Positions 8,327-64,000 of a stretch of DNA of 64,000 nucleotides are shown piece after piece. A model generated the notes under the pieces. The model was not told the DNA's origin, searched no databases, and saw nothing but the letters and a program-made list of their open reading frames with translations. Within the stretch, counting starts at the first letter, position 1; every line of letters starts with the position of its first letter. The stretch is from Dehalococcoidia bacterium (GTDB lineage: Bacteria; Chloroflexota; Dehalococcoidia; Bin125), in contig OZ253456.1 of assembly GCA_965261225.1 (NCBI GenBank), positions 771,617-835,616 on the forward strand. The letters are read 5' to 3'. Position numbers and translations under genes: made by a program.

Positions 8327-8342
8327 GCCCCCATCCTAGAAG

Positions 8343-8391: not shown

Positions 8392-8479
8392 ACACAACAT
8401 CCGCCAACCCCAACACACCGACAGAACAAATGTCCGCATACCATCGACTCCACCCGTCGCCAGCCCGAAGGAGCAGTCA

Positions 8480-8827
8480 ATGTCCGAGCAGAAGCCATTC
8501 ATCCCCTTCGAGGGCAACGCCATCCGCCGCGCCCTCGGCGAGCTCGCCGCCACCGGCCCTGGCTACGTCCGACTCGGCGCTCTCAAGGTCATGGCCTCCA
8601 TGCTCGGTCTCTCCGACGATCCCCTCGCCCACGCCGATCCCCAGCGCGATCGACGACTCGATGCCGCCCTCGATGAGGTTGAAGCCATCCTCGGCGAGGC
8701 GCTCCGCAGCGAGACCAGGGTGCAGACCGCCGACCCGGACTCCCAATCCGGCCCCGAAGGCGGCGACGATCAAGACAACCAGGCAGAGCAGCAGGAAGAA
8801 GCCGACGATGACGACGAACCACCATAA
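8480..8827 (+). CDS. Hypothetical acidic protein, in the position of a small terminase subunit
   Basis: Internal ATG of ORF 8153..8827, preceded by GAAGGAG. It reads MSEQKPFIPFEGNAIRRALGEL... with a D/E/Q-rich tail, and overlaps the terminase start by 20 nt. Confidence 0.5.
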   Translation: MSEQKPFIPFEGNAIRRALGELAATGPGYVRLGALKVMASMLGLSDDPLAHADPQRDRRLDAALDEVEAILGEALRSETRVQTADPDSQSGPEGGDDQDNQAEQQEEADDDDEPP

Positions 8828-10217
8828 TTCCTCAGACCGCACGGTCCGTAAGGCCCTCAAAGCCCTCCATCGGCTCCGTTTTTTTTCTCCCACAGAGCGC
8901 CAACAAGAACTCTACGAAGAGATCTTCGACGCGTCCCCGGACAGCCTCACCCTGCTCGGCTACGGAGGCGCCATGGGCGGCGGCAAAACTCGCGCCGTCG
9001 TCGAACTCGCCATCGACGCCGCCCTCGCCTTCCCCGGCAACAACATCCTCGTCGCTCGACAACACTTCACCGACCTCTCCGGAACCACCATGAAGGCGTT
9101 CTACAACGCCTGCCCCGATGAGTACATCCGCAGCACGCAATCCGCCCCGACGCCACTCGCCAGGATCGCCCTCCCAAAGCGCCCCAACGACCACATCTCG
9201 ACCATCAACTTCCGACACCTCACCGACTGGTCCGGCCTCGGATCCCAGGAATATGGCGCCGTGCTGATCGACGAAGCGGGAGAGGTCGCCGAGGAGGCCG
9301 CGCAGATGCTGCTCACCCGACTCCGGCACCCCGCCCAGCCCCAGCGCTGGTTCGTCGCCGCATCCAATCCCTGGCCGGGCTGGTTCGAGCGCTGGTTCGC
9401 CCGACGCGAGCTGGACGAGGAAGCCTTCGCCGAAGCCGACGGGCGGATCGTCTACATCCCGGCGAAGATTCCCGACAACCCGCACCTGCCCTCGACCTAC
9501 GCCGCCCAGCAACGAGCGATTCAGCCCGGCGAGTGGGTCGACCGCTTCATCGAGGGCAGCTTCGACGCCTTCGACGGGCAAATCTACCAGCACTTCAGCC
9601 CCGACACACACCGATGGGACGCGCCCCTGCCGCCCTTCGCCCGATACGTCGGCGGACTCGACTTCGGCGGGCAATCGCCCAAGGACCACTACACCGCCGG
9701 CATCGTCGCCGGCCTCACCGACCAGCGCGCGCCCTGCGGACCCAACATCCTGATCCGGCTGGGCGAGTTTGAGGAGCGCGGCCCCGGCGTCACCCAGCGA
9801 CTCGAGCAGTGGCAACAGTCCTGGCATCGCAAACTCGGCCCCATCCAATGGTGCGCCGACCGCTCACAGTCGGCCTGGATCGACCACCAACGCCGACAGG
9901 GCCACCACGTCGTCCCCAGCAAGGGAGGGCCGGACAGTGTCAACTGGGGCATCGCCTTAGTACAACAACGACTCAACGGAGACCCACCCAGCGCCTACTA
10001 CACCCCCGCAATGGATAAGTTCCCCGGCCGGATGCGTGAGTATCAGTGGGATCAGTCAACCACCGACCAGAGTCCAAAACCAAAGAAACGAAACGACGAC
10101 CTGCTTGACGCCGACCGCTACATGCACGAAATCGCAACCCAGCAACCAAGAACCAGGACAACATTCAAGCTCACCACCCCCGTCAGAGGCCGAGACGCCC
10201 GCTGGAGGGGAGCATGA
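8808..10217 (+). CDS. Phage terminase large subunit (ATPase plus nuclease)
   Basis: Frame of ORF 8430..10217, start taken at ATG 8808 (MTTNHHNSSDRTV..). Walker A YGGAMGGGKTRA, Walker B AVLIDEAGE, ..IPAKIPDNPHLP.., and nuclease part GGLDFGG...DDLLDADRYMHE. Confidence 0.8.
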   Translation: MTTNHHNSSDRTVRKALKALHRLRFFSPTERQQELYEEIFDASPDSLTLLGYGGAMGGGKTRAVVELAIDAALAFPGNNILVARQHFTDLSGTTMKAFYNACPDEYIRSTQSAPTPLARIALPKRPNDHISTINFRHLTDWSGLGSQEYGAVLIDEAGEVAEEAAQMLLTRLRHPAQPQRWFVAASNPWPGWFERWFARRELDEEAFAEADGRIVYIPAKIPDNPHLPSTYAAQQRAIQPGEWVDRFIEGSFDAFDGQIYQHFSPDTHRWDAPLPPFARYVGGLDFGGQSPKDHYTAGIVAGLTDQRAPCGPNILIRLGEFEERGPGVTQRLEQWQQSWHRKLGPIQWCADRSQSAWIDHQRRQGHHVVPSKGGPDSVNWGIALVQQRLNGDPPSAYYTPAMDKFPGRMREYQWDQSTTDQSPKPKKRNDDLLDADRYMHEIATQQPRTRTTFKLTTPVRGRDARWRGA

Positions 10218-10226
10218 CCCGTGAGG

Positions 10227-10487
10227 TCAGTCGAGGAAGGCGATGAGCAGACCGACAGCGCCGATAATCAATCCGGTCGCAATCATCATGGCGAGCAGCA
10301 GTTGCGTGCGCATCTCGGCCATGTCGCGCCGCATCTCTGTCATCAGCAACTTGAACTTCAGGTCCGACTCACGACGTCCGTACGTGTGGTTGTCAATCGC
10401 GTCTGCCGCCTCGTCAGCCTGCGCCTCCTCGACCCCCAACGAGTGGAAGGCGCGCCTGAGCCGGACGATCGGATTCATCGCCGCCAT
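10227..10487 (-). CDS. Tail-anchored small membrane protein, paralog A (DUF1640/XhlA-like architecture)
   Basis: 86 aa: MAAMNPIVRLRRAFHSLGVEEAQADEAADAI.., a charged helical middle, and a C-terminal TM LLLAMMIATGLIIGAVGLLIAFL. Confidence 0.7.
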   Translation of the reverse strand: MAAMNPIVRLRRAFHSLGVEEAQADEAADAIDNHTYGRRESDLKFKLLMTEMRRDMAEMRTQLLLAMMIATGLIIGAVGLLIAFLD

Positions 10488-10499
10488 GCTCGACCCTCC

Positions 10500-10793
10500 T
10501 CAGTTGACTGCGACGATGATGGCGACTGCGACGCCGACGATCACGATGATCTCGATCAACAGCTCCCGTCGATGCGCGATCATCATCTCCCGCATCTCGG
10601 CGGTCTGCTGCCGCAGCTCCGCCATCATGCGCTCAAAGCGCAGGTCCGATTCGCGCCGGCTGTAGCCGTATTCGCTGATCGCATCGGCGGCCTCTTCCGA
10701 AATGTCGTCAGCGGCGACATCGGTCAAGGGCGCACTCGCCCCCAACGAGCGAAACGCCCGTCGCAACCGCAGAATCGGATTCATCGCCGCCAT
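10500..10793 (-). CDS. Tail-anchored small membrane protein, paralog B
   Basis: 97 aa with the same N-terminal MAAMNPILRLRRAFRSLG and C-terminal ..HRRELLIEIIVIVGVAVAIIVAVN. A 12-nt gap containing GGAGGG separates it from its neighbour. Confidence 0.75.
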   Translation of the reverse strand: MAAMNPILRLRRAFRSLGASAPLTDVAADDISEEAADAISEYGYSRRESDLRFERMMAELRQQTAEMREMMIAHRRELLIEIIVIVGVAVAIIVAVN

Positions 10794-10805
10794 GCTCGAC
10801 CCTCC

Positions 10806-11054
10806 TCAGTTGAGTGCGACGATGATGGCGACTGCGACGCCGACGATCACGATGATCTCGATCAACAGCTCTCGTCGATGCGCAGCCATCATCTCCTGCA
10901 TCTTGGCCATCTCACGCTGGAACATCAACTCAGTCTCGCGTCGGCTAAAGGAATGATCGCCGAGCGCATCCGCTACCTCGTCGACCTGCTCATCATCCAC
11001 GCCCAACGAGCGAAATGCCCGTCGCAAACGCAGGATCGGGTTCATCGCCGCCAT
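10806..11054 (-). CDS. Tail-anchored small membrane protein, paralog C
   Basis: 82 aa. The N- and C-termini are identical to paralog B at protein level, and long DNA stretches are shared (10470-10580 versus 10776-10885). Confidence 0.75.
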   Translation of the reverse strand: MAAMNPILRLRRAFRSLGVDDEQVDEVADALGDHSFSRRETELMFQREMAKMQEMMAAHRRELLIEIIVIVGVAVAIIVALN

Positions 11055-11066
11055 GCCCGTTCCTCC

Positions 11067-11297
11067 TCAGTTGACCAGCGCCAGAAGCGCGACGCCCAGC
11101 CCGACGATGATCAGCACGCCGAGCAGCAACGGATTGCGATCCTCCGCCATGATCCTGGCGATCCGCTCCTCGAATTCGCGGCGACTCAGGTAGATGTCGT
11201 CCAGCACCGTCGACAGCTCGTCCGCCTCCTGAGGCTGCGCCCCGACCTGTCGAAACAAGCGGCGCAATCGCAAGATCGGGTTCATGCTCGACATCAC
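11067..11297 (-). CDS. Tail-anchored small membrane protein, paralog D
   Basis: 76 aa: MMSSMNPILRLRRLFRQVG..., C-terminal TM LLLGVLIIVGLGVALLALV. It lies 33 nt downstream of the methyltransferase stop, with GAGG before the ATG. Confidence 0.7.
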   Translation of the reverse strand: MMSSMNPILRLRRLFRQVGAQPQEADELSTVLDDIYLSRREFEERIARIMAEDRNPLLLGVLIIVGLGVALLALVN

Positions 11298-11330
11298 AGC
11301 CTCGCGTTCCTCGTCCCCAATATACCGTAC

Positions 11331-14300
11331 TTATCGCCTATCTGTTCTACGTTGAGAATCCTCCCCGTTCTCAGTAAAGACCACCCGAGACCGCTTCCCC
11401 CCATGAATCTGAGGCTCCCGAGCCAGCTTGCGCCGAATCAAATCAATCGGCCCATCGTCCGCCACCAAGGATTCCGGAAGCCCCAAAACATCAACCAAAA
11501 TCGCCCGGTCCAACTTCGCCCGAGCCGGGTCCTCATCAATCTGGTCAAAAGGAAGAAACCGCTCCGCAGAAAGCAACGCAAACTGCCGCTTGGCCTCGGT
11601 ATGCTGAGCATCGGTAAGGGTGCGGGTGTCGAGAGTAGGAATGTTAGGAATGCCGCTGACGGTTGTAGTGCCACGACCGTCTTGTGTCTTGTTGGCGACC
11701 CACCAGTGGATAAGCAGTCCGAGTGTCGAGTTGCACCACAGCGAGAACGCGTATTCGTGTTCAGAGTCTTGCAGGATGACAGAAGGCCACGCCCGCCCTC
11801 CAATGCACTTGCGCTCAGTCATTGCCACAATCAACGACTGAGAGTTGAATCGGAGATCGCGGTTATAGTGGGCTCGTGTAGCAGTCGCCCACACATGGGC
11901 GGCTTTGTCCTGCAACAATTCCTCCATACCCTCATCGATTCTCAACAATCCTTCGGAATCAGGTTCCACGGTCAGGCGACGTTCGCGTTTCGCCTTGTGC
12001 GCCCAAAGAGTTGGATACGTCGGTACAGGTCCTTGTGGAGGCGACTGAATGTCGAATGGCCCCCGAATTTGCCTCGCTCCGCCGACGAAGGACTGCTCTA
12101 TGCCATTGATGTCACGATCGACCGGGCCGCGTTCTGCAATTCTTCCTATAGGTACTACGGCGATAGGTATGTCCTCTGCTCCCGGTTCACCTATACGCTG
12201 CATTCTTCGCAGAGTAAGTTGGTGCGCGAACTGTGCCAATTCGAGATCGAGAATCCCGCAGAGAGTCCAGGGCCCCGATTCTTGAAGCGCCATAGAACTT
12301 ATCGTTCCGTAAGTTGCTCCGCCGAGTTGCAACGCTGTAACACCGCTACCGTCCTCAATAGAACGAACATTGGAGTTGCGCTGCAACTTACGTATCTCAT
12401 TGCCGAGTTGCTCTGCCTCGGTCGCCGTCGTTGGAAGCTTCCGCAAGACCACGAACCAGTTGTGGCGATCGTTGTCCTTCGCAACCTGATCGTGCGTGAG
12501 TACCACGAGGCATTCGGCCATTCCGGTGTCGGCAGAGAACGACCGGTCAAAGCTTCCCTCCGCCGCGATTGTGACAACGGTGGTCTCTCTGTAGTCATCT
12601 TGCCATTGACCTCGCAGTTTGTCCCAGGAACTGCCACTCATCGACGAAAGGGGCAGAACAAACGCCAAACTTCCGTCCTCGTTTCGCTTGCGATGTGCGA
12701 GTTCTGCGAACAATGCCGCCATACCTGCATTTCCTGCAGCGGCAGAGCCTTTAGTAAGAGATTTCTCGCGGCGAGACATCGCGTCCTGCTGCTGAGGCGT
12801 CGTCTCGAATGCAGAGTAGGCAGGATTTGGAACGTCGCTATGTGCACCCTCGTGGTTCGTCGGGCGCGTAAAGGGTGGATTCATGATCACCAGATCGAAC
12901 TTGTCGTGACCAACTCTTGTCCTCAAATCGGCAACATCTTCCGGAAGACGTCCTCCAGACGTGGTTGCAGATGCATCCTCAATCAGACTTGGCTGTACGT
13001 CTTTAGCGAGCAGCTCCAGCGACCCAATCGACGCCGACTCCCCGCCGTACGGCATCGTCAGCAGGCACTCACCATCGAAGGGCACGTCAGGATGTGCCCC
13101 CGCGAGCATCGTCGCCGTCAGATGCACCGCGATATTGAGCACATCGAGTCCGACCAGCCCGTTCTTCATCATCGGCGCGTGCAGCGCTCGCGGGTCGCCG
13201 CCGTTGAGCTCGTGCAGCAGCGAGATGCGCTGGTAGGCCGCCGAGAGCAGCGTCCCCGTGCCGCAGGCGAAGTCGCCGATCTGCAGCGAGGCGATCGTCT
13301 CCTCGTCGCCCCACTCCGCCCCACCCGGCGCACGGTCGGCGGGAATCGCCAACCCGGCCAGCAGCGCCGCCGCCGCCGGTCGCGTGTAGAATGTCGCCAG
13401 GAACTTCCGGTCCGCAATCAGACGCTGAAAGATCACCCCGGTCAGGTCGTGCGACTTGGTCACCCCGCGTTGCACCAGACGCAGCGCGCCCTTGCGCAAT
13501 GGCGTCAGCACCGCCGCGGCCGTCTCTTCCGGCAGCTTGCGGACAATCTCCGACGCCGTCGCGAAAATCGGCCAGTAGTTGATCTCCAGCACAGACTCCC
13601 ATTCCAGAGTCAGGGCGTCAATGTCGAAGTCGCCCGGCGGCAGCAGCTCACGCAGGTGTCGCAGACGTCGCTGCGCGCCTGCATCGGTGATGAAAAACTC
13701 GGCCCCGGCCAGCGCCTCATGGAAAATCAGCGCATTGATCACAACAGTCATCGCCATCCGGCGAGTCTGACCGCCCTGATCATCGGATTGTCCAAGCAGG
13801 TCGGCGATATCAGAGCCAATCGACCCCGTTGCGTGGGAGCCGTGCCGGTAAGTGAAGGCAGCCGCGGCGTCCTCAATGCTCTGCTCGAGGATCACACCCA
13901 TGCGCTCGACGCGCGGCGCCGGTGTCGAGGCCCGATGCGCCAACATCGCCAGGTCACGGGCAGAGCCCGTCAGCCAACCGCTCTGCGGCAAGCGCTCCAC
14001 GCCGCCGCCACGCGTGCGCGTCAGCAGCGCGTATTCCAGACCGTCCGTGGTCCGCAACGTCTGTCGCAATTCCTTTCCGTCGATCTCCCAAACCTCCGGC
14101 GGATAGACCAGCGCGATTACGCTCTCGATCGGCTTGCGGGTCTCGTTGACGACCTGTCCCAGCCGATCACGCGCATCCAATTCGGCGCTGTCGTAGTTCG
14201 CTTTGTCCGCCTCAATCGCCACAGGCCACTGCGCCGCTTCTTCAATCAGCACATCGGGCCGCTTGGCAGAGGATCGAATCGTGCGAGTCTCTTCGAAATG

Positions 14301-14378
14301 CACCTGCCAACTGTGAGGCCGAAGCTCCCGCAGCACCTCGCCCAGAGCGACATTGATCGTGTGCTCATGAGTAGGCAT
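11331..14378 (-). CDS. Large single-chain N6-adenine DNA methyltransferase with an N-terminal nuclease-like domain (type IIG/IIL-like restriction-modification enzyme)
   Basis: 1015-aa ORF. SAM motif I is DFACGTGTLL and catalytic motif IV is VIMNPPFTRP, a gamma-class order. The N-terminus has a possible PD-(D/E)xK-like signature (KRPDVLIEE..WPVAIEADK). The roughly 400-aa C-terminal region has visibly lower G+C, as expected for a target-recognition domain. Confidence 0.75.
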   Translation of the reverse strand: MPTHEHTINVALGEVLRELRPHSWQVHFEETRTIRSSAKRPDVLIEEAAQWPVAIEADKANYDSAELDARDRLGQVVNETRKPIESVIALVYPPEVWEIDGKELRQTLRTTDGLEYALLTRTRGGGVERLPQSGWLTGSARDLAMLAHRASTPAPRVERMGVILEQSIEDAAAAFTYRHGSHATGSIGSDIADLLGQSDDQGGQTRRMAMTVVINALIFHEALAGAEFFITDAGAQRRLRHLRELLPPGDFDIDALTLEWESVLEINYWPIFATASEIVRKLPEETAAAVLTPLRKGALRLVQRGVTKSHDLTGVIFQRLIADRKFLATFYTRPAAAALLAGLAIPADRAPGGAEWGDEETIASLQIGDFACGTGTLLSAAYQRISLLHELNGGDPRALHAPMMKNGLVGLDVLNIAVHLTATMLAGAHPDVPFDGECLLTMPYGGESASIGSLELLAKDVQPSLIEDASATTSGGRLPEDVADLRTRVGHDKFDLVIMNPPFTRPTNHEGAHSDVPNPAYSAFETTPQQQDAMSRREKSLTKGSAAAGNAGMAALFAELAHRKRNEDGSLAFVLPLSSMSGSSWDKLRGQWQDDYRETTVVTIAAEGSFDRSFSADTGMAECLVVLTHDQVAKDNDRHNWFVVLRKLPTTATEAEQLGNEIRKLQRNSNVRSIEDGSGVTALQLGGATYGTISSMALQESGPWTLCGILDLELAQFAHQLTLRRMQRIGEPGAEDIPIAVVPIGRIAERGPVDRDINGIEQSFVGGARQIRGPFDIQSPPQGPVPTYPTLWAHKAKRERRLTVEPDSEGLLRIDEGMEELLQDKAAHVWATATRAHYNRDLRFNSQSLIVAMTERKCIGGRAWPSVILQDSEHEYAFSLWCNSTLGLLIHWWVANKTQDGRGTTTVSGIPNIPTLDTRTLTDAQHTEAKRQFALLSAERFLPFDQIDEDPARAKLDRAILVDVLGLPESLVADDGPIDLIRRKLAREPQIHGGKRSRVVFTENGEDSQRRTDRR

Positions 14379-14410
14379 CGGGCGCTCAGTCTAGACGCCG
14401 TCCGCCACCC

Positions 14411-14803
14411 TCAAACCGACTCGATGACGAGGTTCGGGATGCGCTCGAAGTGGCGGCGGTTGTTGGTCAGTAGGGTCAGGTCGTGCTGTAGCGCCGTCGC
14501 CCCGATCAGGAGGTCCATGCTGCCGAACAAATTGCCTTGCCTGCGCAAACGATTGCGTTCGATTCCGAACAGGCGGGCTGTCTCGAAGTCGACTCCCAAC
14601 AGCACAAGGTCTCCAACAAACATCCGTAACTGCTGTTCACGTTGCGCACGATCAGGCGCGCCCGCGACTCCCTCGTATAGCTCGGCCAATGCGATCACAC
14701 TGATGGCAATGCCGAGAGGTTCCAGGGATACGATGCGACTCACAAGTCGTTCGATGCCGTTGAGGTACTCGATGGCCCAGTCGGAGTCCAACAGGTATTG
14801 CAT
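14411..14803 (-). CDS. vapC: PIN-domain toxin VapC
   Basis: Internal ATG of ORF 14411..14983: MQYLLDSDWAIEYL...ALAELYEG...MDLLIGATALQHDLTLLTNNRRHFERIP, which are PIN acidic motifs. Confidence 0.8.
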   Translation of the reverse strand: MQYLLDSDWAIEYLNGIERLVSRIVSLEPLGIAISVIALAELYEGVAGAPDRAQREQQLRMFVGDLVLLGVDFETARLFGIERNRLRRQGNLFGSMDLLIGATALQHDLTLLTNNRRHFERIPNLVIESV

Positions 14804-14807
14804 CGTC

Positions 14808-15056
14808 TCAGAGATGCCTGGGCGGTCGTGTGCCGTCGATGCGGGCTTGGTAGATGTCGCGGATGAATTGTTCGTGGTCATCGAACATATCAGCCCAGAC
14901 ACCTGCAGACCTGGCCAGCCCCCCCTTGTCGGATGGTGGCTGCTTGTGGTCATCCAGGGTGAGGACGACTTCCTGGTCTTCACTGAGGTCGATGTCCTCG
15001 AGCGGCTCGAGGACGCCGTTGTGGTAGCGGGCGCGGAAGTTCTTGAGCGTCATCAT
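14808..15056 (-). CDS. DUF104/AF2212-like antitoxin (VapB-type partner)
   Basis: 82 aa: MMTLKNFRARYHNGVLEPLEDIDLSEDQEVVLTL.. is typical of DUF104. It ends 4 nt upstream of vapC. Confidence 0.7.
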   Translation of the reverse strand: MMTLKNFRARYHNGVLEPLEDIDLSEDQEVVLTLDDHKQPPSDKGGLARSAGVWADMFDDHEQFIRDIYQARIDGTRPPRHL

Positions 15057-22210: not shown

Positions 22211-22409
22211 GAGACCGATGCGTAACCCCCTAACCGCCCCGCCTCCGAGCGGGGGGCTGCTGCCTGCCCGGTTGACGTTTGCCGTCCATGCTCGTCGTGC
22301 ACATCTGGTCGAGAGCGACCAGTCGGTGTTCGGCAGGCGTGGCCCAAGCGGGTCCCCGCTCGGGGGCGGGGACGGGGAAGTTTCCCAAGCGCGACTTTTT
22401 CAACGGTCT
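22211..22409. repeat. Roughly 200-bp composite element (family B hairpins), left arm flanking the HTH gene
   Basis: It starts gagaccgatgcgtaac, contains gggtccccgctcgggggcggggacgg, and ends aagcgcgactttttcaacggtct. It is collinear with the copy at 58293..58500. Confidence 0.7.
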
Positions 22410-22464: not shown

Positions 22465-23307
22465 TCAGGGATGCGGGGTGGCGGCTTTCGCTTCGGCTTT
22501 GAGTTGGAGGGCGGCCTGTCGGAGTGGGTGGTCGGGGTTGTGTTGGGGGTAGTCGTTGATCCAGTCGCGGGTTGAGTGTTCGAGGAAGGCTCGGACTTCG
22601 TCGGGGACTGCGCTGGGCGGGGTGTGTTCGGTCGGGGGCGGGTTCTTTTGGTCGTTGTTGGCGGATTTGCCGTTGTGGGCTGGGTTTTGGCTGGTTTTCT
22701 GTTCGGATTTGTTCGATTTTGTTCGAATGGGTGCGGCTGGTTCCTCGGCTGGTTCCTCGGTGGGGGCACCGAGCGGGTCCCCGATCAAGTCGGGGACGCG
22801 GGGCGCGGTCGAGTCGGCTGGGCAGGTCATGGGTAGGTCGGGGTCGAGTTCGGTCTGAGCGGGGAGTTGGGCGTTTCGTTCGAGTTTGGCCGATTCCTGG
22901 GGGGTGGGCGGGTGCCTGCGGTTGAGCATGGGGTGGCGGTTGCCGTAGCGGTCGACGGAGACGCCGGCCTGGGTGAGCACGCCGACGCGCTGGTATTCGT
23001 CGTATCGGATCTTGGGGACGGCGGTGAGGAGCAGCCGGAGCTCGCGGACGGCGGCGAGTCGTCGGTCGTGATGTTCGTCGGAGAGGTCGGCAAGCTGGAT
23101 GACGTGGGAGACGATCTGGTCGGCGGCGAGTTCCTGGATCAGGTCGGTGCGGAAGAGTTCGAAGTCGCTGAGGTAGCCGGAGACGGTGGAGTGGGCGCAG
23201 TCCATGCGTTGGGCGATCTGACGGAGGCTGAGTCCCTGCTGCCGGAGTTGGTGCGCGTGGAGGAGTTTGGCGCGTCGGGCGGGGTTGGGGAAGTGGGGGA
23301 AGGACAT
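22465..23307 (-). CDS. HTH-domain protein with a low-complexity C-terminal half
   Basis: 280 aa. The N-terminal ..LRQQGLSLRQIAQRMDCAHSTVSGYL.. is a helix-turn-helix. No DDE or recombinase motifs were seen. Confidence 0.6.
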   Translation of the reverse strand: MSFPHFPNPARRAKLLHAHQLRQQGLSLRQIAQRMDCAHSTVSGYLSDFELFRTDLIQELAADQIVSHVIQLADLSDEHHDRRLAAVRELRLLLTAVPKIRYDEYQRVGVLTQAGVSVDRYGNRHPMLNRRHPPTPQESAKLERNAQLPAQTELDPDLPMTCPADSTAPRVPDLIGDPLGAPTEEPAEEPAAPIRTKSNKSEQKTSQNPAHNGKSANNDQKNPPPTEHTPPSAVPDEVRAFLEHSTRDWINDYPQHNPDHPLRQAALQLKAEAKAATPHP

Positions 23308-23419: not shown

Positions 23420-23541
23420 GGGGGCTGGTCCCCGCTCGGGGGCGGGGACGGTTAGGGCTCAGGCGCCAGTTCTGGTAGGTGGGACTGGAACGGGTCCCCG
23501 CTCGGGGGCGGAGACGGGAATCTGAGTTATGCATCGGTCTC
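23420..23541. repeat. Family B element arm in inverse orientation
   Basis: Two hairpins (ggtccccgctcgggggcggggacgg and gggtccccgctcgggggcggagacgg). It ends gttatgcatcggtctc, the reverse complement of the left terminus with one mismatch. Confidence 0.7.
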
Positions 23542-23807
23542 CGCACGGGGGGGGGAGCGGCCGTCGCGCAGCACATGCGTACCTGGGCGGCGGCAGCCTC
23601 CTCCGCGCCTGCGGCGCACCTCCCACAACGGGGGAGGTCTTGAACCACCGCGAGTTCGCGAGCAGCGAAACACGCCCGAAACATCTGACACATTGCCGAA
23701 ATGTACGCGCAACCGAAATGACATCTGGGCGCAACTCTTATGAAACCACAACATTGCCGACCTTCCATACGTTGCCTTCAGACCGGAATTCGGGAAGGGA
23801 GGCAATT

Positions 23808-25316
23808 GTGATACTTGCCCGATTGGTCAGGACACAGCCACTATCGTTTGGGGCTGTCCGCAAACCTGGACTGGGGTTATTCCTCGGTATCCTCACCGGC
23901 CTGTTGGCCACCGTTGGCATCGCCTATGGACAAAGCGTTGAAGAAAACGCTGCGGCGCTCGCCGACCTTGTCCTCGCGGTTGACACCATTTGGTTTGTCA
24001 TTGCCGGCGTCCTGGTGTTCTTCATGCAGGCTGGCTTCGGATTGCTCGAGGCCGGCTTCGTGCGTGTCAAGAACACCTCCAACATCCTGATGAAGAACGT
24101 GCTCGACGCGTCCGTCGGCGCGGTCGTCTGGTGGGCGGTTGGCTTCGGCTTCGCCTTCGGCGGCAGCCAGGGCGGACTGATTGGCGGTGACTCGTTCTTC
24201 CCCGCGCTCGGTGGACTGACCGACACCAGCGGCGGCGTCTCCGAGGCAGCCGTCTTCTTCTTCCAGTGGGCCTTCGCCGCCACTGCCGCGACCATCGTCT
24301 CCGGCGCCCTGGCCGAGCGAACCAAGTTCAGCGCCTACCTCTTCTACACCGTGTTCGTGACCGGCATCATCTACCCCATCGTGATTCACTGGGGCTGGGG
24401 CGGCGGCTGGCTCGGCGAACGTGGCTTCATGGACTACGCAGGCTCGACCCTGGTCCACAGCGTCGGCGCATGGGCCGGACTGATGGGCGCCATCATGGTC
24501 GGTCCGCGGATCGGCAAGTACGTCGGTGCGGAAATCCGCGCCATCCCCGGCCACAACATGACCCTCGCCACGCTGGGTATGTTCATCCTCTGGTTCGGTT
24601 GGTACGGGTTCAACGCCGGCTCCACCCTCGGACTCTCCGGTGGACTCGCGACCGAGGCCGCCTGGATTGCCATCAACACCACCCTCGCAGCCGGTACTGG
24701 TGCAGTCGTCGCCATGTCGGTCGCCAAATTCCGCTACGGCAAGGCCGACCTCGGTCTGACCGTCAACGGCGCGCTCGCCGGACTCGTCTCGATCACCGCA
24801 GGTTGTGGATTCGTCGAGCCCTGGGCCGCCGTCCTGATCGGCGGCATCGGTGGCGGACTGGTCGTCTTCGCGGTCGAAACGTTCGACCGGATCAAGATCG
24901 ACGACCCCGTTGGCGCAATCTCCGTCCACGGCGTCTGCGGCGTCTGGGGCACGCTCGCGGTTGGCCTCTTCGCCACCGCCGGCGCAGCCGAAGCCTGGGG
25001 CGCTCCCGGACACGGCCTGTTCATGGGCGGCGGCTTCCGCGCCCTGCTCGAGCAGCTGATCGGCGTCCTCTCGATCTTCGCCTGGGTCAGCGTGACCTCC
25101 GCCATCCTGTTCCTCGTGATCAAGAAGACCATCGGACTGCGTGTCTCGGAGAACGAAGAACTGGCCGGACTCGACGTGCAAGAGCACGGCATCGGCGCCT
25201 ACCCCGAGTTCCCGACTGTTGCGCCCGGCGTGGCTGTCGAAATCTCGGCTGGCGAGGAGAGTCCAGCACCGGCTGGCAGCCCATCAGGCGGTGGCGGAGG
25301 CAGCGGAGGCGACTAG
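23808..25316 (+). CDS. amt: Ammonium transporter
   Basis: Frame of ORF 23529..25316, with GTG 23808 after GGGAAGGGAGG. Motifs: ..FFMQAGFGLLEAGFVRVKNTSNILMKN.., ..AISVHGVCGVWGTLAVGLFA.. Confidence 0.9.
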   Translation: MILARLVRTQPLSFGAVRKPGLGLFLGILTGLLATVGIAYGQSVEENAAALADLVLAVDTIWFVIAGVLVFFMQAGFGLLEAGFVRVKNTSNILMKNVLDASVGAVVWWAVGFGFAFGGSQGGLIGGDSFFPALGGLTDTSGGVSEAAVFFFQWAFAATAATIVSGALAERTKFSAYLFYTVFVTGIIYPIVIHWGWGGGWLGERGFMDYAGSTLVHSVGAWAGLMGAIMVGPRIGKYVGAEIRAIPGHNMTLATLGMFILWFGWYGFNAGSTLGLSGGLATEAAWIAINTTLAAGTGAVVAMSVAKFRYGKADLGLTVNGALAGLVSITAGCGFVEPWAAVLIGGIGGGLVVFAVETFDRIKIDDPVGAISVHGVCGVWGTLAVGLFATAGAAEAWGAPGHGLFMGGGFRALLEQLIGVLSIFAWVSVTSAILFLVIKKTIGLRVSENEELAGLDVQEHGIGAYPEFPTVAPGVAVEISAGEESPAPAGSPSGGGGGSGGD

Positions 25317-25757: not shown

Positions 25758-25873
25758 CGACCGACGGCCGATCCCCCTTCGCGGGGACCGGTTGGGGCGG
25801 GGGCAACTCTACGGAGCAGCCCCCGCTTCATTCGTTTAACTCGCCAAACAAGTCCTGTCGCTCTGGCTCCTTT

Positions 25874-25996
25874 GCTCCCCCCTTGGGGGAGCTGTCGCGA
25901 AGCGACTGAGGGGGCCGGCCGCCCGAGTTTCAACTGACTGCCCGCCCAGAAGGGACCCCCTCAGCCTTCGGCAGCTCCCCCTGCGAGGGGGAGCAA
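25874..25996. repeat. Inverted pair of family C repeats
   Basis: gctccccccttgggggagctgtcgcgaagcgactgagggggccggcc ... gggaccccctcagccttcggcagctccccctgcgagggggagc. Confidence 0.8.
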
Positions 25997-29121: not shown

Positions 29122-29154
29122 ACGCATCCATGAAGCGAAGGCCACAAATCGGAA

Positions 29155-29341
29155 TTCCCAGTCCCCGCTTCACGCGGGGACCCGCTCGGGGGGCACGGCT
29201 AATCTGGCGGTGGTGTTTCGGGCACGGGAGGAGCGGGTCCCCGCGTGAAGCGGGGACTGGGAGTCTGCGGATGGGGGCTGGGACAGGGAGATATCAGATG
29301 CCTTCTCCGAGCGGGTCCCCGATTGAATTGGGGACTGGATC
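29155..29341. repeat. Cluster of three family A palindromic repeats
   Basis: ttcccagtccccgcttcacgcggggacccgctcgg (forward), gagcgggtccccgcgtgaagcggggactgggag (reverse), and the variant gagcgggtccccgattgaattggggactgg. Confidence 0.8.
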
Positions 29342-40438: not shown

Positions 40439-40446
40439 TCCCAAGA

Positions 40447-40698
40447 GCTTCCCCAAAGGGGGAGCTGTCCCGGAGAGACTGAGGGGGCCGCGCCGCAGTC
40501 CTCTGCTCGTAGTCTTTCGTTGACCGTCGCCAATTCTCCGCCCAGTCCCCGCTCCTGAAGGGTGTCTCAGAAGTCGGACTTCCCAGTCCCCGCTTCACGC
40601 GGGGACCCGTTCCCCTGGAGCCGTTATGTCGACCAGCGCAGCCGTGCGCTCTACAAACGCCGACCGAGCGGGTCCCCGCGTGAAGCGGGGACTGGAAC
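40447..40698. repeat. Repeat cluster: one family C copy plus an inverted pair of family A copies
   Basis: 40447-40494 gcttccccaaagggggagctgtcccggagagactgagggggcc; 40581-40615 tcccagtccccgcttcacgcggggaccc; 40666-40698 gagcgggtccccgcgtgaagcggggactgg. Confidence 0.8.
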
Positions 40699-53862: not shown

Positions 53863-54599
53863 ATGATTGACGCAGCGAATACCGCCTGAGTGCTGATCTG
53901 CTCGGCCCTCGTCTTACTTATGATCCCTGGTCTGTTGTTCTTCTACGGTGGACTTGTACGCAAGAAGAATGTCGCCGGGACGCGCTAATGCAGGTCATCG
54001 TGACGATGGGCGTGGTTGGCGTCGTCTGGGTGTTGTGGGGTTATAGCCTGGCCTTCGGCCCCTCGCTCGGCGGCTTCATCGGCAACCTCGAGTGGTTTGC
54101 CCTCTCAGGCGTCAGCGCGATGGAGCCCGGGCCCTACTCGGACACCATCCCGCATCAGGCGTTCATGATCTTTCAAGGTATGTTCGCCCTGATCACGCCG
54201 GCTGCCGGATTCGTCGGCGTCATGCCGGCGCTCGTGATCGGTCTGGTGGCGGGCGTCGTTTGTTACTGGGCGGTGGAGTTGCTCGGCAAGCTGCGGATCG
54301 ACGACTCACTGGCGGTGTTGGGCGTGCACGGCAGTGGCGGGACCTGGGGCGCGATCGCCACCGGGCTGTTCGTCGGCATTGGCTACGGAGCGCTGGCCGA
54401 CGGCGTCAGTCGCGGCGAGCAGATCCTCTACCAGCTGATCAGCATTGGCGCGGCCTGGGGCTGGTCGCTCGTCGCCACCGCAGTCATCTTGCTGGCGATC
54501 AAATACGCCATGGGACTTCGGCTGCCGGACCGCGATGAGGAGCTCGGTTTAGACCTGTCCCAGCACGACGAAACCGCCTACACGTTTGACGACCGCTAG
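53863..54599 (+). pseudogene. Degraded ammonium transporter gene
   Basis: MIDAANTA-TGA-VLICSALVLLMIPGLLFFYGGLVRKKNV.. carries a stop where Amt proteins have Trp. A frame change follows near 53985 into ORF 53988..54599. That ORF jumps from ..FQGMFALITPA directly to the C-terminal third (..DDSLAVLGVHGSGGTWGAIATGLF..), so roughly 200 aa appear to be missing. Confidence 0.75.
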
Positions 54600-56561: not shown

Positions 56562-58021
56562 CAGCCAGGCTCCTCGTTCAGCACCCAGGTGTCCTTGCTG
56601 CCGCCGCCCTGCGAGGAGTTGACGACGTATGATCCCTCACGCAAGGCCACGCGCGTCAGGCCTCCGGGAATTACCCAGGTCTCCTGGCCCGAGAGCACAA
56701 ACGGGCGCAGGTCCGCCCGGCGCGGTTTCAGTTGGTCGTCGTCAAACGTGGGAATCGTGCTGAATTGGAGAAGCGGCTGGGCGATCCAATTTCGCGGCTC
56801 CGCCTCGACCTGGGCCAGCCTCGCCTCGAGTTCGGCGCTTGAGGCTTGTTCGCCAATCAGCACTCCATAGCCGCCGGAGGCGTTGGCGGGCTTGATCACG
56901 AGCTCTCGCGCATGGGCGCGAATGTGTTTCAGCTCGGACGGAACCAGCGGCGAGTAGGTCTCGACGTTCGCGAGGATGGGGTCTTCGTCCAGATAGAAGC
57001 GGATAATCTCGGGCACCCAGCGATAGACGACCTTATCGTCGGCGACGCCGGCGCCGGGTGCATTGACCAGGCTCACGTGACCGTTGAGATAGGCGCGCAT
57101 AAGTCCCGGCACGCCCAACAGCGAGTCCGTCCGGTAGACCGTCGGGTCGAGGAATTCATCGTCAATCCGCCGGTAGATGACGTCGATCCGCTCCAGGCCG
57201 GTGGTCGAGCGCAGGTAGACGAAGTCGTCGTCTCCGACGATCAGGTCGGAGCCCTCGACGAGCGGAAGACCCATCTGGTTGCTGAGAAACGAGTGCTCGA
57301 AGTAGGCGGAGTTATAGATGCCTGGAGTGAGCAGCACCGCACGGGGCGGATCGCTGCTGTCTGCCGGTCGCACGGACAGCAGCATGGCCATGAGCTGGTT
57401 GGGATAATCAGCGACGGCGCGCACGCCCCAGCGAGGGAACAGATCAGGCACGACCCGCAGCATCACGGTACGGTTCTCGAGCACGTATGACACGCCCGAA
57501 GGCGTTCTGAGATTGTCCTCCAGCACGACCAGCCCGCGCTGCTTGTCGCGGAGCAGATCACACCCGGCGACGTGCGCGTAGACATCCAACGGTGGCCGGA
57601 AGCCCGCCATCTCCGGCTTGTAGCCCGGGGAACTCAGGACGATCTCTGCTGGAATCACCTGCTCCTTGATGATTCGCTGCGCCCCATAGATGTCCAGCAG
57701 AAACAGGTTGAGTGCTTGCAGGCGCTGTTTCAGGCCGGCTTCGACGTCCGACCACTCTTGCGCTCCGATGATCCGCGGGATCAAGGAAAACGGGAAGATT
57801 CGCTCCGTTCCTTCATCCTCCGAATAGACGTTGAAGGTGATACCCGCGCTTAACAGCGCGAGGTCCGCGCGCTCCTCGCGTTGCAGGTGATCCTCCAGCG
57901 ACCAGCCTTGCAGAATCTCGCCAAGCTTTCGGTAGTCACTCCGGAACGCTCCGGTTTCGTCGAACATTTCATCGTCCGACAAATCGGCGGCCTGATAGCC
58001 CTGTAGGAGATCGTTCGTCAT
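56561..58021 (-). CDS. Circularly permuted type-2 ATP-grasp protein (DUF404/DUF407)
   Basis: 486 aa: ..GITFNVYSEDEGTERIFPFSLIPRII.., ..LVVLEDNLRTPSGVSYVLENR.., ..ELVIKPANASGGYGVLIG.. Confidence 0.8.
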   Translation of the reverse strand: MTNDLLQGYQAADLSDDEMFDETGAFRSDYRKLGEILQGWSLEDHLQREERADLALLSAGITFNVYSEDEGTERIFPFSLIPRIIGAQEWSDVEAGLKQRLQALNLFLLDIYGAQRIIKEQVIPAEIVLSSPGYKPEMAGFRPPLDVYAHVAGCDLLRDKQRGLVVLEDNLRTPSGVSYVLENRTVMLRVVPDLFPRWGVRAVADYPNQLMAMLLSVRPADSSDPPRAVLLTPGIYNSAYFEHSFLSNQMGLPLVEGSDLIVGDDDFVYLRSTTGLERIDVIYRRIDDEFLDPTVYRTDSLLGVPGLMRAYLNGHVSLVNAPGAGVADDKVVYRWVPEIIRFYLDEDPILANVETYSPLVPSELKHIRAHARELVIKPANASGGYGVLIGEQASSAELEARLAQVEAEPRNWIAQPLLQFSTIPTFDDDQLKPRRADLRPFVLSGQETWVIPGGLTRVALREGSYVVNSSQGGGSKDTWVLNEEPG

Positions 58022-58292
58022 AGCCTGAGCCTATAGGCCAAACATCTACCGCAGCAGTCAGCGCCGCCAGGCACGACGAAGCGCGATCCAGCGGTCAGTC
58101 TGTCCAGATGCTCCGGAGAATGGAACGCGAGATACGGCGGCGTTGGCATTTGGGCATTGAGTAGCGATTGAGCGCCTGGCTCCAGCTCGATGATCCGTTT
58201 GCTGAAGACCTCGTTAACGCACAGCGCCTCGCATGCGCTGATTGGTCGGGTGCGGGCGATCGGATGGAGAACGCTGGGGTTCCCGCGTTGTG

Positions 58293-58500
58293 GAGACCGA
58301 TGCGTAACTCCAGCACTCCCGGTTTTCCGTCCCCGCCCCCGAGCGGGGACCTGCCCCCGTTCCCCACAGGCCGAACGACAAGGGTGCGGTGCATATCTGG
58401 TGAAGAGCGACCACGAGGTCGTAGCCTCGAGAAGCGGAACGGGTCCCCGCTCGGGGGCGGGGACGGACAAGATCTCCAAGCGCGACTTTTTCAAAGGTCT
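58293..58500. repeat. Solo copy of the roughly 200-bp family B composite element
   Basis: gagaccgatgcgtaac...ccgtccccgcccccgagcggggacc...gcatatctggtgaagagcgacc...gggtccccgctcgggggcggggacgg...aagcgcgactttttcaaaggtct, collinear with 22211..22409. Confidence 0.75.
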
Positions 58501-59210
58501 CGTTGTGGGACTTGAACCGTGCGCAGATTGCGGCGCATCCGAGGTTCCGAGTCGGCCCCTATAGCGCCACCTCCCAGGCGAACGTTCGCAGTATGGTCTC
58601 GCTTGGTGCTCTCGATCGCCTGCCAGATTCGGTCCAGCCGGCGTCTCAGACTCCGCACCATGGTCGGCGAGGTCTGGATCGTCATGCCTCGGCGCGGCCT
58701 TCAGCCGGGTCCCGTCGCAAACGACCGAACACGCTGCGGCGAATGGGCAGATGGCAACGATGAAGCCGGAGAGCTCTGCCTTCATGGCGCGCGGTACGTT
58801 GGCGAGGGCAAACGCACCCGATGGCGTAGGCATTGGTACTCGTAGAGCGTGCAACTGCCGTATGCAACCGTACATACAATTGACCGTGGAAACGCATGCT
58901 GCAAGAAGGTGCATATCGTTTCCGAATATACGGACATGCGCCGCCAATCTATCACCATAACGTTGAGTACAAATGCCTACCAGGAAGTGTTGCATCACGG
59001 CCCTTGTGCAGTCCCTTGCCGCGGCTATAGGCTTGCATGCAGTGCCGAGGCCCAACGGCAGCCCATTGGAGTTGTTCCGTACAAATCGGAGCAAGTAGGC
59101 TTCGTTGGAACCAAGGCGATCATCACCAGCCCTACAGACCAAACGACGACGGGTCCAACAGCGGCCAAGCAGGGCCGACAGCCGTTGTATTCGAATGTAA
59201 AGGTGCGGAA

Positions 59211-62200
59211 ATGGCTATGAAACTGCCCGCGATCCGAACCATTCAGTCCTCCGCTCATCTTCAGCGAACGTCCGAAGCCGGAGTGCGACCGAGGAGGTTC
59301 CGGCCGCGGCCCGTCCTGGCCCTGGCGGTCCTGCTGCTGGCTGTTGTGAGCTTCGTGGGCGTGGGGGGGGGGGGGGGGGGGGGGTCCTCTCGGTTGCCCA
59401 GGCTCAGCAATCCGATGGCGCTATCAGCGACCTGACCCTGACCAGCGACACCCCCGGCGTCCTTGACGTCGCCTGGGACGCGCCCAGCGGCGACGCCCCG
59501 ACCGACTACCGGGTCAACTGGGCACGCAGCGATGCGGACTGGCCCTCATGGACCGACGAGTCCGCCAACCTGCACCCGACAACTACCAGCCAGCAGCTCA
59601 CCGGACTCGTCCAGGGCGCGGAGTATAAAGTCCGCGTCCGCGCCCGCTACCACAAGGGCGCCCACGCCGCCAGCCCCTGGAGCGGACCCTGGGACGACGC
59701 CACCCACACAGTCGCCGCCGCCGTCAGCGTCCCAATGGTCGTGCAGCCCCAGCAGGACCCAGGCGCCATTGCCGGCCTGACCCTGACCAGCGACACGACC
59801 GGCGTGCTTGACGTCGCCTGGGACGCGCCCGCCGGCGACGCCCCGACCGACTACCGGGTCAACTGGGCACGCAGCGATGCGGACTGGCCCTCATGGACCG
59901 ACGAGTCCGCCAACCTGCACCCGACAAGCACCAGCCAGCAGATCGCCGAGCTCGTCCAGGGCGCGGAGTACAAGGTCCGCGTCCGCGCCCGCTACCACAA
60001 GGGCGCCCACGCCGCCAGCCCCTGGAGCGGACCCTGGGACGAAGCCACCCAGACAGTCGCCGCGGCGCCCACAGTAGGCCCCCGCACTGTCGACGAGCCG
60101 CCAATCACGCCGCCCCCGCCAGTCACGCTGACCCCGCCCGTGCTGACCGTCATCGAGCCCGAAGAGCCCGTGCTCAACGTCTTCAAGCCCGAAGAGCCCC
60201 TGTCCTCCCCGTCCCTGCTCACCGTGATCAAGCTCGACGGGCCCGTGCGCGACGCGCCCGTGCTGACCCCGCCCGTGCTCAACGTGATCAAGCCCGACGA
60301 GCCCGTGCTGACCCCGCCCACGTTCACCGTCATCGAGCCCGAAGACACCGATGAGCCCGACGAGCCCCTCATTTCACTCCGGCAGCACAGCAGCGGCCAA
60401 CCCGTGCAACTCGCCGGTAACGAAGGAGAAACCGCCAGCGGCACTGTGACCGTCGGACCCCAGGGTGCGGCGTACCGGGCCGCGGCTGTCTCCTTCACGC
60501 CGGGCAGCGGCGCCGCCTGGTACGAACTCAGCTCCATCAAATTCACCGCCGGGACGGCCTCAACCTTGTCAACCGCTACTCCGGTGCGCGTGACGATCCA
60601 CCTCGACAACGGCGGCAACCGTCCCGCCGAGAGCGCCCTGTACGTCGCCTACGCCCTTTTCGCCTCGGCTCAAATGTCGGCTGCGGCTATGGAGGCGAGG
60701 TTCCCGGCCCACGCGATACTCCAGCCCAACACCAAGTACTGGGTGGTCTTCCACGAGTTGAGCGGGCTGCGTTCCTTCACCCTCAATAAGACACTTTCCG
60801 ACGACGAAGACAGCGGTTCCGGCTTCGCAATCGGCGACGATGCGTACACGATCGACTACCTGGCCGTGACCTCGGCCAACACCTGGAGCGTTGTCAGCCC
60901 TGCTGCGGCCATCAAGTTGTCGTTCTGGGGTTATGCGGCGACTGAGGCTGTGCTGGTCGGCGCGCATGGGCTGCGCGACACTGCTGCCGACGGTCCGTTG
61001 TTGCGGTTCGGCAACGAGCGTATCACGAAGGTGTGGCTGAACCTGCCCAAGAATGGCGCCTTTACAGGCGCCGGGAACCCGCGGTTCGTGTGCGAACCGT
61101 CGGCCCGTCAGGACGACGGGGTCGACGGCAACGCAGACGACAGCGAGACGTCGTGGCGGCTGTGCAGCTCGAACCGTCATCACGATCAGCTCTGGGCCGG
61201 CGGGCGGTCGTTCACCGCGGGGCCGAACCCGTCCGGGTACACGATCACCGCCCTCGGCGCGGACATCGACCACAAGGTCGGCACGATCACTCCGACCGCG
61301 GAGCTCTATCCCGTCGCTGCCTTCCAGCGCGCGTTGGGCGACCGGGCCCTCGATCCCAGGGGCTCGGCGCTGGCGACTTATCGGGCGGCGAACACGACTG
61401 CGTCGCCTGACCGGTTCGCTCGCGTGTCGGGCCCCGAACGGCTCCAGGTCGACCCCGGCTCCACGTTGGTGGCGTACTTCTCCAACGCGGCCAGCAACAT
61501 CCAGGGCGCTCATAACTATTTCGAGATGCCCAACGCCGCGGAGGGCATGGATGGCGGCGGCGAGTCCGGCTGGAGCCTCGGCGGGGAGTACGGCCGCCGG
61601 TTCGATTACCCGTACTGGTTCTTCCCCGGGATCAGCTTGAACGCAACCGGAGGCCTCCTGAAGCGGATCCCGCTCAACGTCTACGGCTGGCCCAACCAGC
61701 CACCGGCCACCACCCACAAACCCGAGCAGCCCCGGGTCGACCTTGGCAGTGTGAGGCTGCTCGACAACCTGGGCTCGTCGATGGATTTCGAGGTCAAGGT
61801 TTCCGGCACCGACGCCTCGCTCGCGCAGGCGTTCACGACCGGGACCCACGTATCGACCCGGAGCAACACAGATGGCTACGCGGCGGCACGGTTGCAGGTC
61901 AGGGTCGCGTCCACGGAGGGGTTCGTGGGCGGGCTGACGGCCGCCATCCACGCGGACGACGACGGGCAACCGGCGACAGCGGCGCTGAAGGTGATGAGCC
62001 TGCAGGCCTACCCGCGCCCGGGCGTCGCCACCTTCTACGCTCCCGGCCTTAAGCTCACACTCGCGGCGGACACGACCTACTGGGTGGTCGTCGGCGCGCC
62101 GACGAGCATGACAAGGGCTCGCGAGATCGGGCTTGGTTCGACCGAGGACAGCTACGACGAATGCGTCGCCGGGGACTGGTCGTTCGCCGGCGTCGTCCAT

Positions 62201-62662
62201 GAGTATGACGGCGCCACACTGAATCCGCTGGAAGGTCTCCGTCTCCAGATGGCGATCGAGGGCTCCAAGAGATCTGGCACGGCCAGATCCTTCGAGCCGG
62301 CCTGCGGCCGGCTGATCCCCGACGGCCCCGCCGTGAACGGCCGTCTCGTCCACACCGCGGACGCGAACGGCTTCCTCAACGTGGGCGACACAGACTGGTT
62401 CGTGGTCAAGCTCGTTGCCGGCGTGAAATACCGGTTCGAGATCGGGACAGGCAAGTCGTACTACCGGCTCAGGATCTACGACCACGCGAATATACATCTC
62501 CAAGCGAGCGTCGACCCCGCATCAGGAGGTTCAGACCCCGATCGAAGCGGCATCCTGAATTACACGCCTGACAACACGGGCATCTACTACGTGTCCGTGT
62601 CGGCCCCGAAGGGCGGGCTCGGGACGCGGGAGTACAGCCTGTCCGCCCGAATAATCCCGTGA
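59211..62662 (+). CDS. Large secreted/surface protein (two FN3-like repeats, Pro-rich spacer, large central domain, C-terminal PPC domain), out of frame at a poly-G tract
   Basis: The N-terminal ORF (frame of 59037..59435; ATG 59211 after AAAGGTG) encodes MAMKLPAIRT...RPVLALAVLLLAVVSFVGV(G)n. After the G-run, the frame of ORF 59735..62662 is already open from about 59384 and reads VLSVAQAQQSDGAISDLTLTSD.., an AQA signal-peptidase site. The C-terminal ..GDTDWFVVKLVAGVKYRFEI...IYYVSVSAP..GTREYSLS.. is PPC-like. Confidence 0.7.
59363..59384 (+). repeat. Homopolymeric G tract (22 G by my count)
   Basis: Read directly: gtg + gggggggggggggggggggg + tcc. It lies within the signal-peptide coding region of the large surface protein. 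Confidence 0.9.
59429..60118 (+). repeat. Tandem duplication, 2 x 345 bp (115 aa), encoding FN3-like modules
   Basis: The unit starting gacctgaccctgaccagcgacac at 59429 recurs at 59774. The two copies are nearly identical for about the first 290 nt of each unit and then diverge. Confidence 0.85.
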
Positions 62663-63471: not shown

Positions 63472-64000
63472 GCGTTCTCTTCCAAATCCTGTTCCTGCCG
63501 CTTCCTGGTTGCGGCGCTCAGGCTAGTGCCTGTTCAGGCAGGCGGCGATGTGTTCATTCGAGGGGTTTGTTGTGGTCATGGCAGTTTCAGGTTTCAGGTG
63601 GAACTTTTTTCTGGGGGTGGTTCGGCGACGATCTCCCGTGCATGGCTAGAGATCGTGGTTCAGGTCTTTCAGGTTTTTTCAGGTTTTTTCGGTCTGGATG
63701 AGGGAACTCTGGTCGGTTTTTGTTCGGATTTGTTCGGATCTGTGCGGATTGGGAGGAAGCGGTTCGGTGGGTTGTCGCGCGGTGCGCGGCCGGTGTTCGA
63801 GGTCGTGGGTTGTTGAAAGGTGTGGGGTTGCCATTGGCTCCGCCTTTCGAGCGCTCATGTGTTCTAATGTTAGCGTGGCTCGGCGGGGTCGGAGCTCAGG
63901 CGCATGGGTTGGTCTGGGGTTGGAGGTCGCGGGTGTTCTGAGCGAACCAGCCTTTGCGGCAGGGTGCTAGCTTGTCGCTGAGTTCGGCAACATCGACCAA

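Follow-up and report, generated by a model that had tools for sequence, protein, structure and literature searches.

A length-variable poly-G tract in the signal-peptide code of an FN3 protein gene from an uncultured Dehalococcoidia lineage: a probable slippage switch

The DNA analysed here is a window of 64,000 nucleotides (nt) from a Dehalococcoidia bacterium of the Chloroflexota (NCBI GenBank assembly GCA_965261225.1, contig OZ253456.1, forward-strand positions 771,617 to 835,616), and all coordinates refer to this window. It contains a gene for a large FN3 protein whose signal-peptide code holds a tract of exactly 22 consecutive G (G22) at 59363-59384. The tract stands between two reading frames, and the question is whether it acts as a slipped-strand switch of the gene. 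The three elements concerned are:

59211..59435, + strand: upstream frame in its present, nominally OFF state as translated, with the start, the n- and h-regions of the signal peptide, seven Gly codons, 16 out-of-frame codons and a TGA.
59363..59384, + strand: the poly-G tract (G22), a slippage-prone element that encodes a Gly run at the boundary of the signal-peptide h- and c-regions, with orthologous and paralogous alleles at the same spot.
59384..62662, + strand: downstream frame with the signal-peptide c-region and cleavage site VLSVAQA/QQ (cleavage at the slash) and the mature protein, 1092 codons that are intact by translation and by stop and indel comparison.

The ATG at 59211 is preceded by a Shine-Dalgarno-like motif, AAGGTG, at a distance of 5 nt. 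Translation from this ATG reads MAMKLPAIRTIQSSAHLQRTSEAGVRPRRFRPRPVLALAVLLLAVVSFVGV (MAMKLPAIRT...VSFVGV) up to the Gly run, continues with seven Gly codons and 16 sense codons and ends at TGA 59433-59435. The run falls in codons 51-58 of this open reading frame (ORF), and the product with 22 G is 74 amino acids (aa) long. The hydrophobic core of the signal peptide is VLALAVLLLAVVSFVGV, and its c-region is VLSVAQA. The +2 frame reads VLSVAQAQQSDGAISDLTLTSD... and is open until a stop that ends at 62662. Between the upstream stop of this frame (59198) and ATG 59735 there is no ATG, GTG or TTG; therefore, translation in the +2 frame could not begin independently until the second FN3 domain. With 20, 23 or 26 G in place of the run, the sequence holds a single ORF of 1149, 1150 or 1151 aa, respectively. 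A first-pass annotation, made from the letters of the window, had placed the 22 G, the TGA and the end of the open +2 frame at these same positions and had proposed that 23 or 20 G would restore one ORF; its coordinates and counts hold.

The genome has a G+C content of 63%, and G runs above 6 nt are otherwise almost absent from the window, which has 107 runs of length 4, 35 of length 5, five of length 6, none of length 7-8, one of 9 and one of 22. At the base composition of the window (G = 0.298), chance would produce a run of 22 G about 2e-7 times in 64 kb. Apart from the tract, homopolymers in the window and in the 150 kb of related loci reach 9 nt at most.

The tract is length variable within the species. 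Two other assemblies of the same species carry the gene, with identities to the window across the locus of 96% and about 91-97%. The allele in L001, a 3.6-Mb contig whose name ends in '_16x_c' (read here as 16x coverage, circular), is G9 and out of frame. The allele in L002 and L003, which are the same contig (L003 is the GTDB species representative, CAXXUV01), is ATTGC followed by G15 and is in frame. With the flanks found in the window the in-frame lengths are 3n+2, and the 5 extra nt (ATTGC) of L002 put its G15 in frame. The in-frame gene of L002 is called as a full protein of 1147 aa (P0001) from the second ATG (59217). The L001 orthologue is called from an internal codon (P0002, 966 aa), and ORF calling in the window has the same outcome. 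Between the window and L001 the 13-nt difference in the tract is the sole difference in 694 nt (58932-59625), so the tract evolves far more quickly than the sequence around it. At the corresponding point of its signal peptide, a paralogue from a different genome (L016, contig tag '_42x_c') reads G9-T-G6 and is in frame. In the sister genes L007 and L008 the position of the tract is occupied by TTC GGG GGC GTC, from which the run may plausibly have grown.

The presence of the tract at the same site in two independent same-species assemblies indicates that it is real and no assembly artefact. A read artefact of two-colour chemistry, which produces poly-G, was considered and rejected because the tract has unique, conserved coding flanks on both sides and recurs in independent assemblies. 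In the metagenome contigs of the Joint Genome Institute (JGI), a DNA pattern search with the tract flanks gave no match and a protein-based search for the locus gave no relative. A protein-database search with the 74-aa OFF product scored nothing, P0001 included, a result set by the word index and no sign that leader variants are absent.

The downstream frame, about 3.3 kb in length, is intact in all three alleles despite 192-300 substitutions and 6-12 indel events between them. Random substitutions with the observed spectrum would introduce 3.9-5.6 stops, and 0 are observed (P of none = 0.02, 0.003 and 0.007). All six indel events between the window and L001 are multiples of 3. The first-pass annotation had allowed for a plain pseudogene with additional disabling mutations; no such mutation is present in the ~3.3 kb of any of the three alleles. 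The ratio of nonsynonymous to synonymous polymorphism (pN/pS) is 0.3-0.4 in the FN3 domains and the following linker and 1.4-1.6 in the C-terminal body (Fisher p about 0.01-0.015), where the divergence is patchy and mosaic; the overall dN/dS is 1.1-1.6. Since neutral decay predicts a value of ~1 throughout, the structured pN/pS fits a functional protein. The pattern in the C-terminal body fits either diversifying selection or reshuffling by recombination. These allele comparisons show that the downstream ORF is kept open by selection and that the gene is not decaying.

The product of the restored frame is predicted to be a secreted or surface protein of ~1150 aa with the following parts:

59392..60036, + strand: two tandem FN3 domains (Pfam fn3, E=2.9e-19) that form a 345-nt duplication at 90% identity (repeat D3), with pN/pS of 0.3-0.4.
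60136..60342, + strand: a Pro/Glu-rich repeat linker with units of the PVLTVIEPEEP type (repeat family D4).
60380..62300, + strand, approximate boundaries: an all-beta, fast-evolving C-terminal body with two choice-of-anchor-R domains, delimited by NCBIfam NF041539, pN/pS and an AlphaFold2 (AF2) model.
62390..62659, + strand, approximate boundaries: a C-terminal PPC-like domain, a weak match to PF04151 (E=0.002, 19.4 bits, below the cut-off of 25.9).

The match to NF041539 (E=6.4e-25, 87.9 bits against a cut-off of 30) falls in two stretches, the best at residues 420-548, and places the protein in the choice-of-anchor R family; a distant homologue, P0008, is so named in NCBI. PF04151 is precomputed on the homologues P0008, P0026 and P0068. 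The AF2 model of residues 346-1150 is all-beta with a mean predicted local distance difference test score (pLDDT) of 65, and model residues 1-49, which correspond to the Pro/Glu-rich linker, have a pLDDT below 50. A fold search of the PDB with this model gave only generic beta-sandwich or lectin-like matches (TM-score <0.2) and no functional assignment. Cluster look-ups gave singletons only.

More than 100 homologues have the same leader and the motif AQAQQxDGAIS immediately before the first FN3 domain. The AQA/QQ motif fits a conserved signal-peptidase site, and the protein is likely to be exported. The first-pass annotation had read an AxA cleavage site here, which is in line with the conservation in the family. 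It had also called the product a surface protein; the leader, two FN3 domains, two choice-of-anchor-R domains and weak PPC match are in line with this, but no anchor motif was seen in the protein, so that "secreted or surface" is the safer description. A twin-arginine translocation (Tat) signal around RPRRF was rejected by inspection: the RR misfits the S/T-R-R-x-F-L-K consensus, and in paralogues of ~650 aa it sits ~20 residues 5' of the h-region. Within the family, four VVVQPQQ units lie between the FN3 domains of P0009 (residues ~165-192). P0003, P0004 and P0005 each have a frameshifted C-terminal tail, and the contig of one of the three is tagged '4x'; this points either to frequent breakage within the family or to errors in low-coverage contigs.

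The gene is preceded by a region without a convincing gene, and further upstream by an ATP-grasp gene:

58022..59210, no strand assigned: 1.2-kb non-coding upstream region with GC hairpins that resemble repetitive extragenic palindromic (REP) elements (58323-58500) and a weak TauD-like remnant, identical to L001 from 58932 on.

The promoter is presumed to lie within 58022-59210. A promoter and terminator scan around the gene found nothing, including no sigma-70-like site, and Rfam and tRNA scans around the gene were also negative. The space between the ATP-grasp and FN3 genes (58018-59142) has only a taurine-dioxygenase-like trace of 41 residues (E = 3.4e-6), and an intact TauD gene is present further downstream in L001. 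An ORF of 203 aa at 53988-54599 aligns with the ammonium transporter profile over the C-terminal third alone (positions 265-399) and is probably a gene remnant. An SBP_bac_5 gene is intact in L009 and split by 1-nt indels in L010, L011 and L012 (at ~2230-3670 of these loci). One of these indels is common to two strains, which indicates real, ongoing pseudogenisation in the lineage.

The locus has several properties of a contingency locus. A simple sequence repeat long enough to slip (a G/C run of ~7 nt or more) lies in the reading frame, the repeat number shifts the frame, the length varies between conserved flanks with both ON and OFF states represented, and the gene downstream is intact. It is therefore probable that G22 is a functioning slippage switch, that is, a slipped-strand contingency locus, of the secreted or surface FN3 protein. 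Slipped-strand mispairing during replication would change the number of G. Lengths of 3n+2 (20, 23, ...) would join the start and the n- and h-regions to VLSVAQA/QQ and the mature protein, giving the ON state. At other lengths translation would end after 74 codons, as with the present G22, and no downstream start would provide an exported product (OFF). The run would be translated as Gly at the h/c boundary, where helix-breaking residues are normal in signal peptides, and would be removed with the signal peptide. Because the Gly run would leave with the signal peptide, the tract length should affect expression and leave the mature protein unchanged. The switching would presumably be reversible and occur at a high rate within the population, and it may have a role toward a host or phage. 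The organism may also be host-associated. The first-pass annotation had offered a contingency switch as one of two options, and as to the nature of the tract this option is supported by three lengths, both frame states, invariant flanks and an open ORF.

Several observations weigh against a functioning switch. G22 is much longer than the tracts of proven phase-variable genes, and 6-7 Gly before the c-region may impair processing of the signal peptide. The number of alleles is small (three orthologous and one paralogous), and two of the three orthologous alleles are out of frame. No further long tracts occur in the available sequence, and there is no sign of a genome-wide contingency set. Real pseudogenes exist in the lineage, as the SBP_bac_5 gene illustrates. 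The FN3 gene is missing at the locus in seven sister-strain loci (L009-L015) in which the ATP-grasp neighbour is 96-98% identical; the gene thus sits in a variable island. Finally, the OFF state of the window is itself uncertain, since the length of a 22-nt homopolymer is unreliable by ~1 nt in what appear to be long-read metagenome assemblies. The differences of 7 nt and 13 nt between alleles are no calling errors, so a real, length-variable tract holds despite the risk of a miscall.

This uncertainty leads to the other option of the first-pass annotation, a miscall of the homopolymer length. The dominant length would then really be 23 (or 20) G and the gene would be intact and ON, which is compatible with a hypermutable tract. 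The errors that remain in long reads are chiefly indels in long homopolymers, and the related contigs carry names in the style of long-read metagenome assemblers with coverage tags down to 4-16x. One added G gives a perfect ORF of 1150 aa, the downstream ORF is intact and under selection, and the low-coverage relative L008 (tag '_4x_') has a frameshift in mid-gene. However, a miscall leaves the existence of the tract and its lengths of 9, 15 and 22 nt unexplained, and the G9 allele, which is far easier to call, is also out of frame on a contig tagged 16x and circular. Other 1-nt indels in the sister strains are outside homopolymers or common to strains and are therefore real, so the assemblies are not generally indel-ridden. 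A miscall is thus conceivable for the present state of the window, where it has a real if lesser chance of being correct, and fails for the tract itself in view of the 13-nt and 7-nt differences. It is unlikely that the gene is instead a plain pseudogene that a slip in the tract inactivated, heading for loss within a decaying island that varies between strains, with no regulatory role for the tract. The frame of most of the orthologous alleles, the nearby TauD-like trace and ammonium-transporter fragment, the SBP_bac_5 gene broken by real frameshifts in sister strains, the missing gene in L009-L015, the overall dN/dS and the frameshifted tails of P0003, P0004 and P0005 are all in keeping with such decay. 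It does not account for the lack of any stop or frameshift in the downstream frame, for purifying selection on the FN3 domains and linker, or for a C-terminal pN/pS that is significantly >1 and not ~1. The species representative also has an in-frame allele. In addition, a long tract should constantly yield in-frame revertants, as may be reasoned from the mutability of such tracts (PMC3401435), which would make the inactivation unstable.

The output of the gene might also be rescued or tuned at the RNA level, in a graded manner, through slippage of RNA polymerase or through a G-quadruplex in alleles of ~15 G or more. The run is longer than the RNA-DNA hybrid, on which the polymerase would slip and produce mRNAs of mixed lengths, making OFF alleles leaky; a quadruplex in the mRNA or the non-template strand would throttle long alleles. 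Folding computation gives the G22 leader RNA -105.8 kcal/mol with G-quadruplex energies and -61.5 without, predicts a four-tier quadruplex, and indicates that the G9 allele cannot form one. The out-of-frame alleles keep an ORF under selection, and in insect endosymbionts frameshifted genes with poly(A) tracts are rescued by slippage during transcription. To our knowledge, slippage of bacterial RNA polymerase is documented mainly for A/T runs and not for G runs. The points in favour are purely computational, and switching at the DNA level accounts for the same facts; RNA-level control as the explanation of the tract is therefore very improbable, and a DNA-level slippage switch is preferred.

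The closest functional parallel to such a switch is pilC of Neisseria, which is switched ON and OFF by homo-G tracts in the code for the signal peptide (PMC5354566). As in pilC of N. gonorrhoeae and N. meningitidis, poly-G in the signal-peptide code here would toggle a large exported protein by frameshift, and the tract would be lost with the leader, so that the mature protein stays as it is (PMC5354566). The proteins differ, one being the PilC/PilY1 pilus-tip adhesin of Pseudomonadota and the other an FN3 and choice-of-anchor-R protein of Chloroflexota. Scanned against Pfam and NCBIfam, the protein matches fn3, choice_anch_R and, weakly, PPC, and shows no PilC/PilY1 homology; the resemblance lies in the switch and not in the protein. 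The tract here is also far longer (22 nt), and switching has been measured for pilC whereas it is inferred here.

In Campylobacter jejuni the modal length of poly-G tracts is 9, and an increase from G8 to G11 raises mutability ~10-fold (PMC3401435). The C. jejuni loci are similar in that intragenic poly-G lies in surface-structure genes, varies in length between and within strains and grows more mutable with length (PMC3401435). They differ in number: C. jejuni has about 29 poly-G/C loci per genome (PMC4965091), and here there is one locus per genome in the available DNA, with lengths of 9-22. A 5' homopolymeric poly-A tract in inlA of Listeria monocytogenes leads by frameshift to a very short product and reverts frequently (PMC2831843). 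It shares with the present case a homopolymer near the 5' end of a gene for a secreted or surface protein of host interaction; such tracts are poly(A) or poly(T) of ~7 nt, in contrast to G22 in a genome of 63% G+C.

The FN3 protein belongs to a large, multi-copy secreted family with a conserved leader (>100 members), a feature it has in common with the eukaryote-like families (FN3, cadherin, leucine-rich repeat (LRR)) of sponge-associated bacteria. FN3 'eukaryote-like' proteins are thought to mediate contact between symbiont and host. The source given for the distant homologue P0008 is Candidatus Poriferisodalis, a name that hints at an association with sponges. In a limited literature search, no phase variation came up for Chloroflexota, sponge-associated or otherwise, and no slippage-driven switching for such FN3 proteins. 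Nearly all known examples of slippage-driven phase variation come from pathogens and commensals in culture. The design of a poly-G switch is therefore already known; what is new here is its setting, an uncultured Dehalococcoidia lineage and the leader of a secreted FN3 protein. A bolder proposal, which we regard as speculative and rather doubtful, is that this is the first contingency locus recognised in the Chloroflexota, provided that the lack of earlier reports in the limited search holds, with a probably host-associated Dehalococcoidia toggling a fast-diversifying FN3 protein. The unusually long tract, of up to 22 G and able to form a G-quadruplex, might then contribute graded control at the RNA level, and such bacteria would persist in part by hedging their bets against phage or recognition by a host.

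Should reads confirm the switching, stochastic ON/OFF expression would become a testable element in the persistence of these bacteria. Gene catalogues from metagenome-assembled genomes would also undercount such genes, because callers split them or start at internal codons, as with the orthologue P0002. The case also warns against reading biology into the frame that a consensus assembly shows for a homopolymer of 22 nt.

The surroundings of the locus differ between strains in other respects. Where the FN3 gene would be, L013-L015 and the L007 neighbourhood encode other giant secreted proteins, whose matches are cadherin-like, Calx-beta, LRR and arylsulfotransferase. The comparison of these loci indicates a hot spot for the exchange of 'eukaryote-like' protein genes. 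Elsewhere in the window, 8430-14983 is a block that resembles a mobile element: a phage-terminase-like ORF occupies 8430-10217, a restriction-modification methylase of Eco57I type 11331-14378 and a PIN-domain gene 14411-14983. Short inverted matches at 14453-15037 were considered as a second copy of the FN3 family in the window and rejected; tblastn gave no paralogue, and the PIN-domain and Eco57I-type methylase genes lie there.

The window also has intergenic, GC-rich, palindromic REP-like repeat families, with short C-run/G-run hairpins such as GGTCCCCGCTCGGGGGCGGGGACGG, and one REP-like pair is upstream of the FN3 gene. The repeat scan gave the following family positions:

6325-6384, 8336-8395, 25866-25925 and 40439-40498: REP-like repeats.
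22349-22409, 23425-23551 and 58323-58500: REP-like repeats.
5747-5791, 29143-29338 and 40568-40695: REP-like repeats.

The sole other long G run of the window is a G9 at 23547-23555, which is within a REP-like element and 18 nt inside an ammonium transporter ORF (23529-25316). The amt domain of this ORF begins at residue 152, and its true start may be downstream of the G9. A second length-variable G run in the lineage is found in L009-L012 at about position 3924, upstream of a carboxyl-transferase gene, where an intergenic hairpin CTCCCCCGCA(G)nAG varies over the four sister strains (A+G6, G8, G9). Tandem arrays with a period of 10 nt (GATTTGTTCG-like, family D7) are present at 22686-22741 and 63707-63762.

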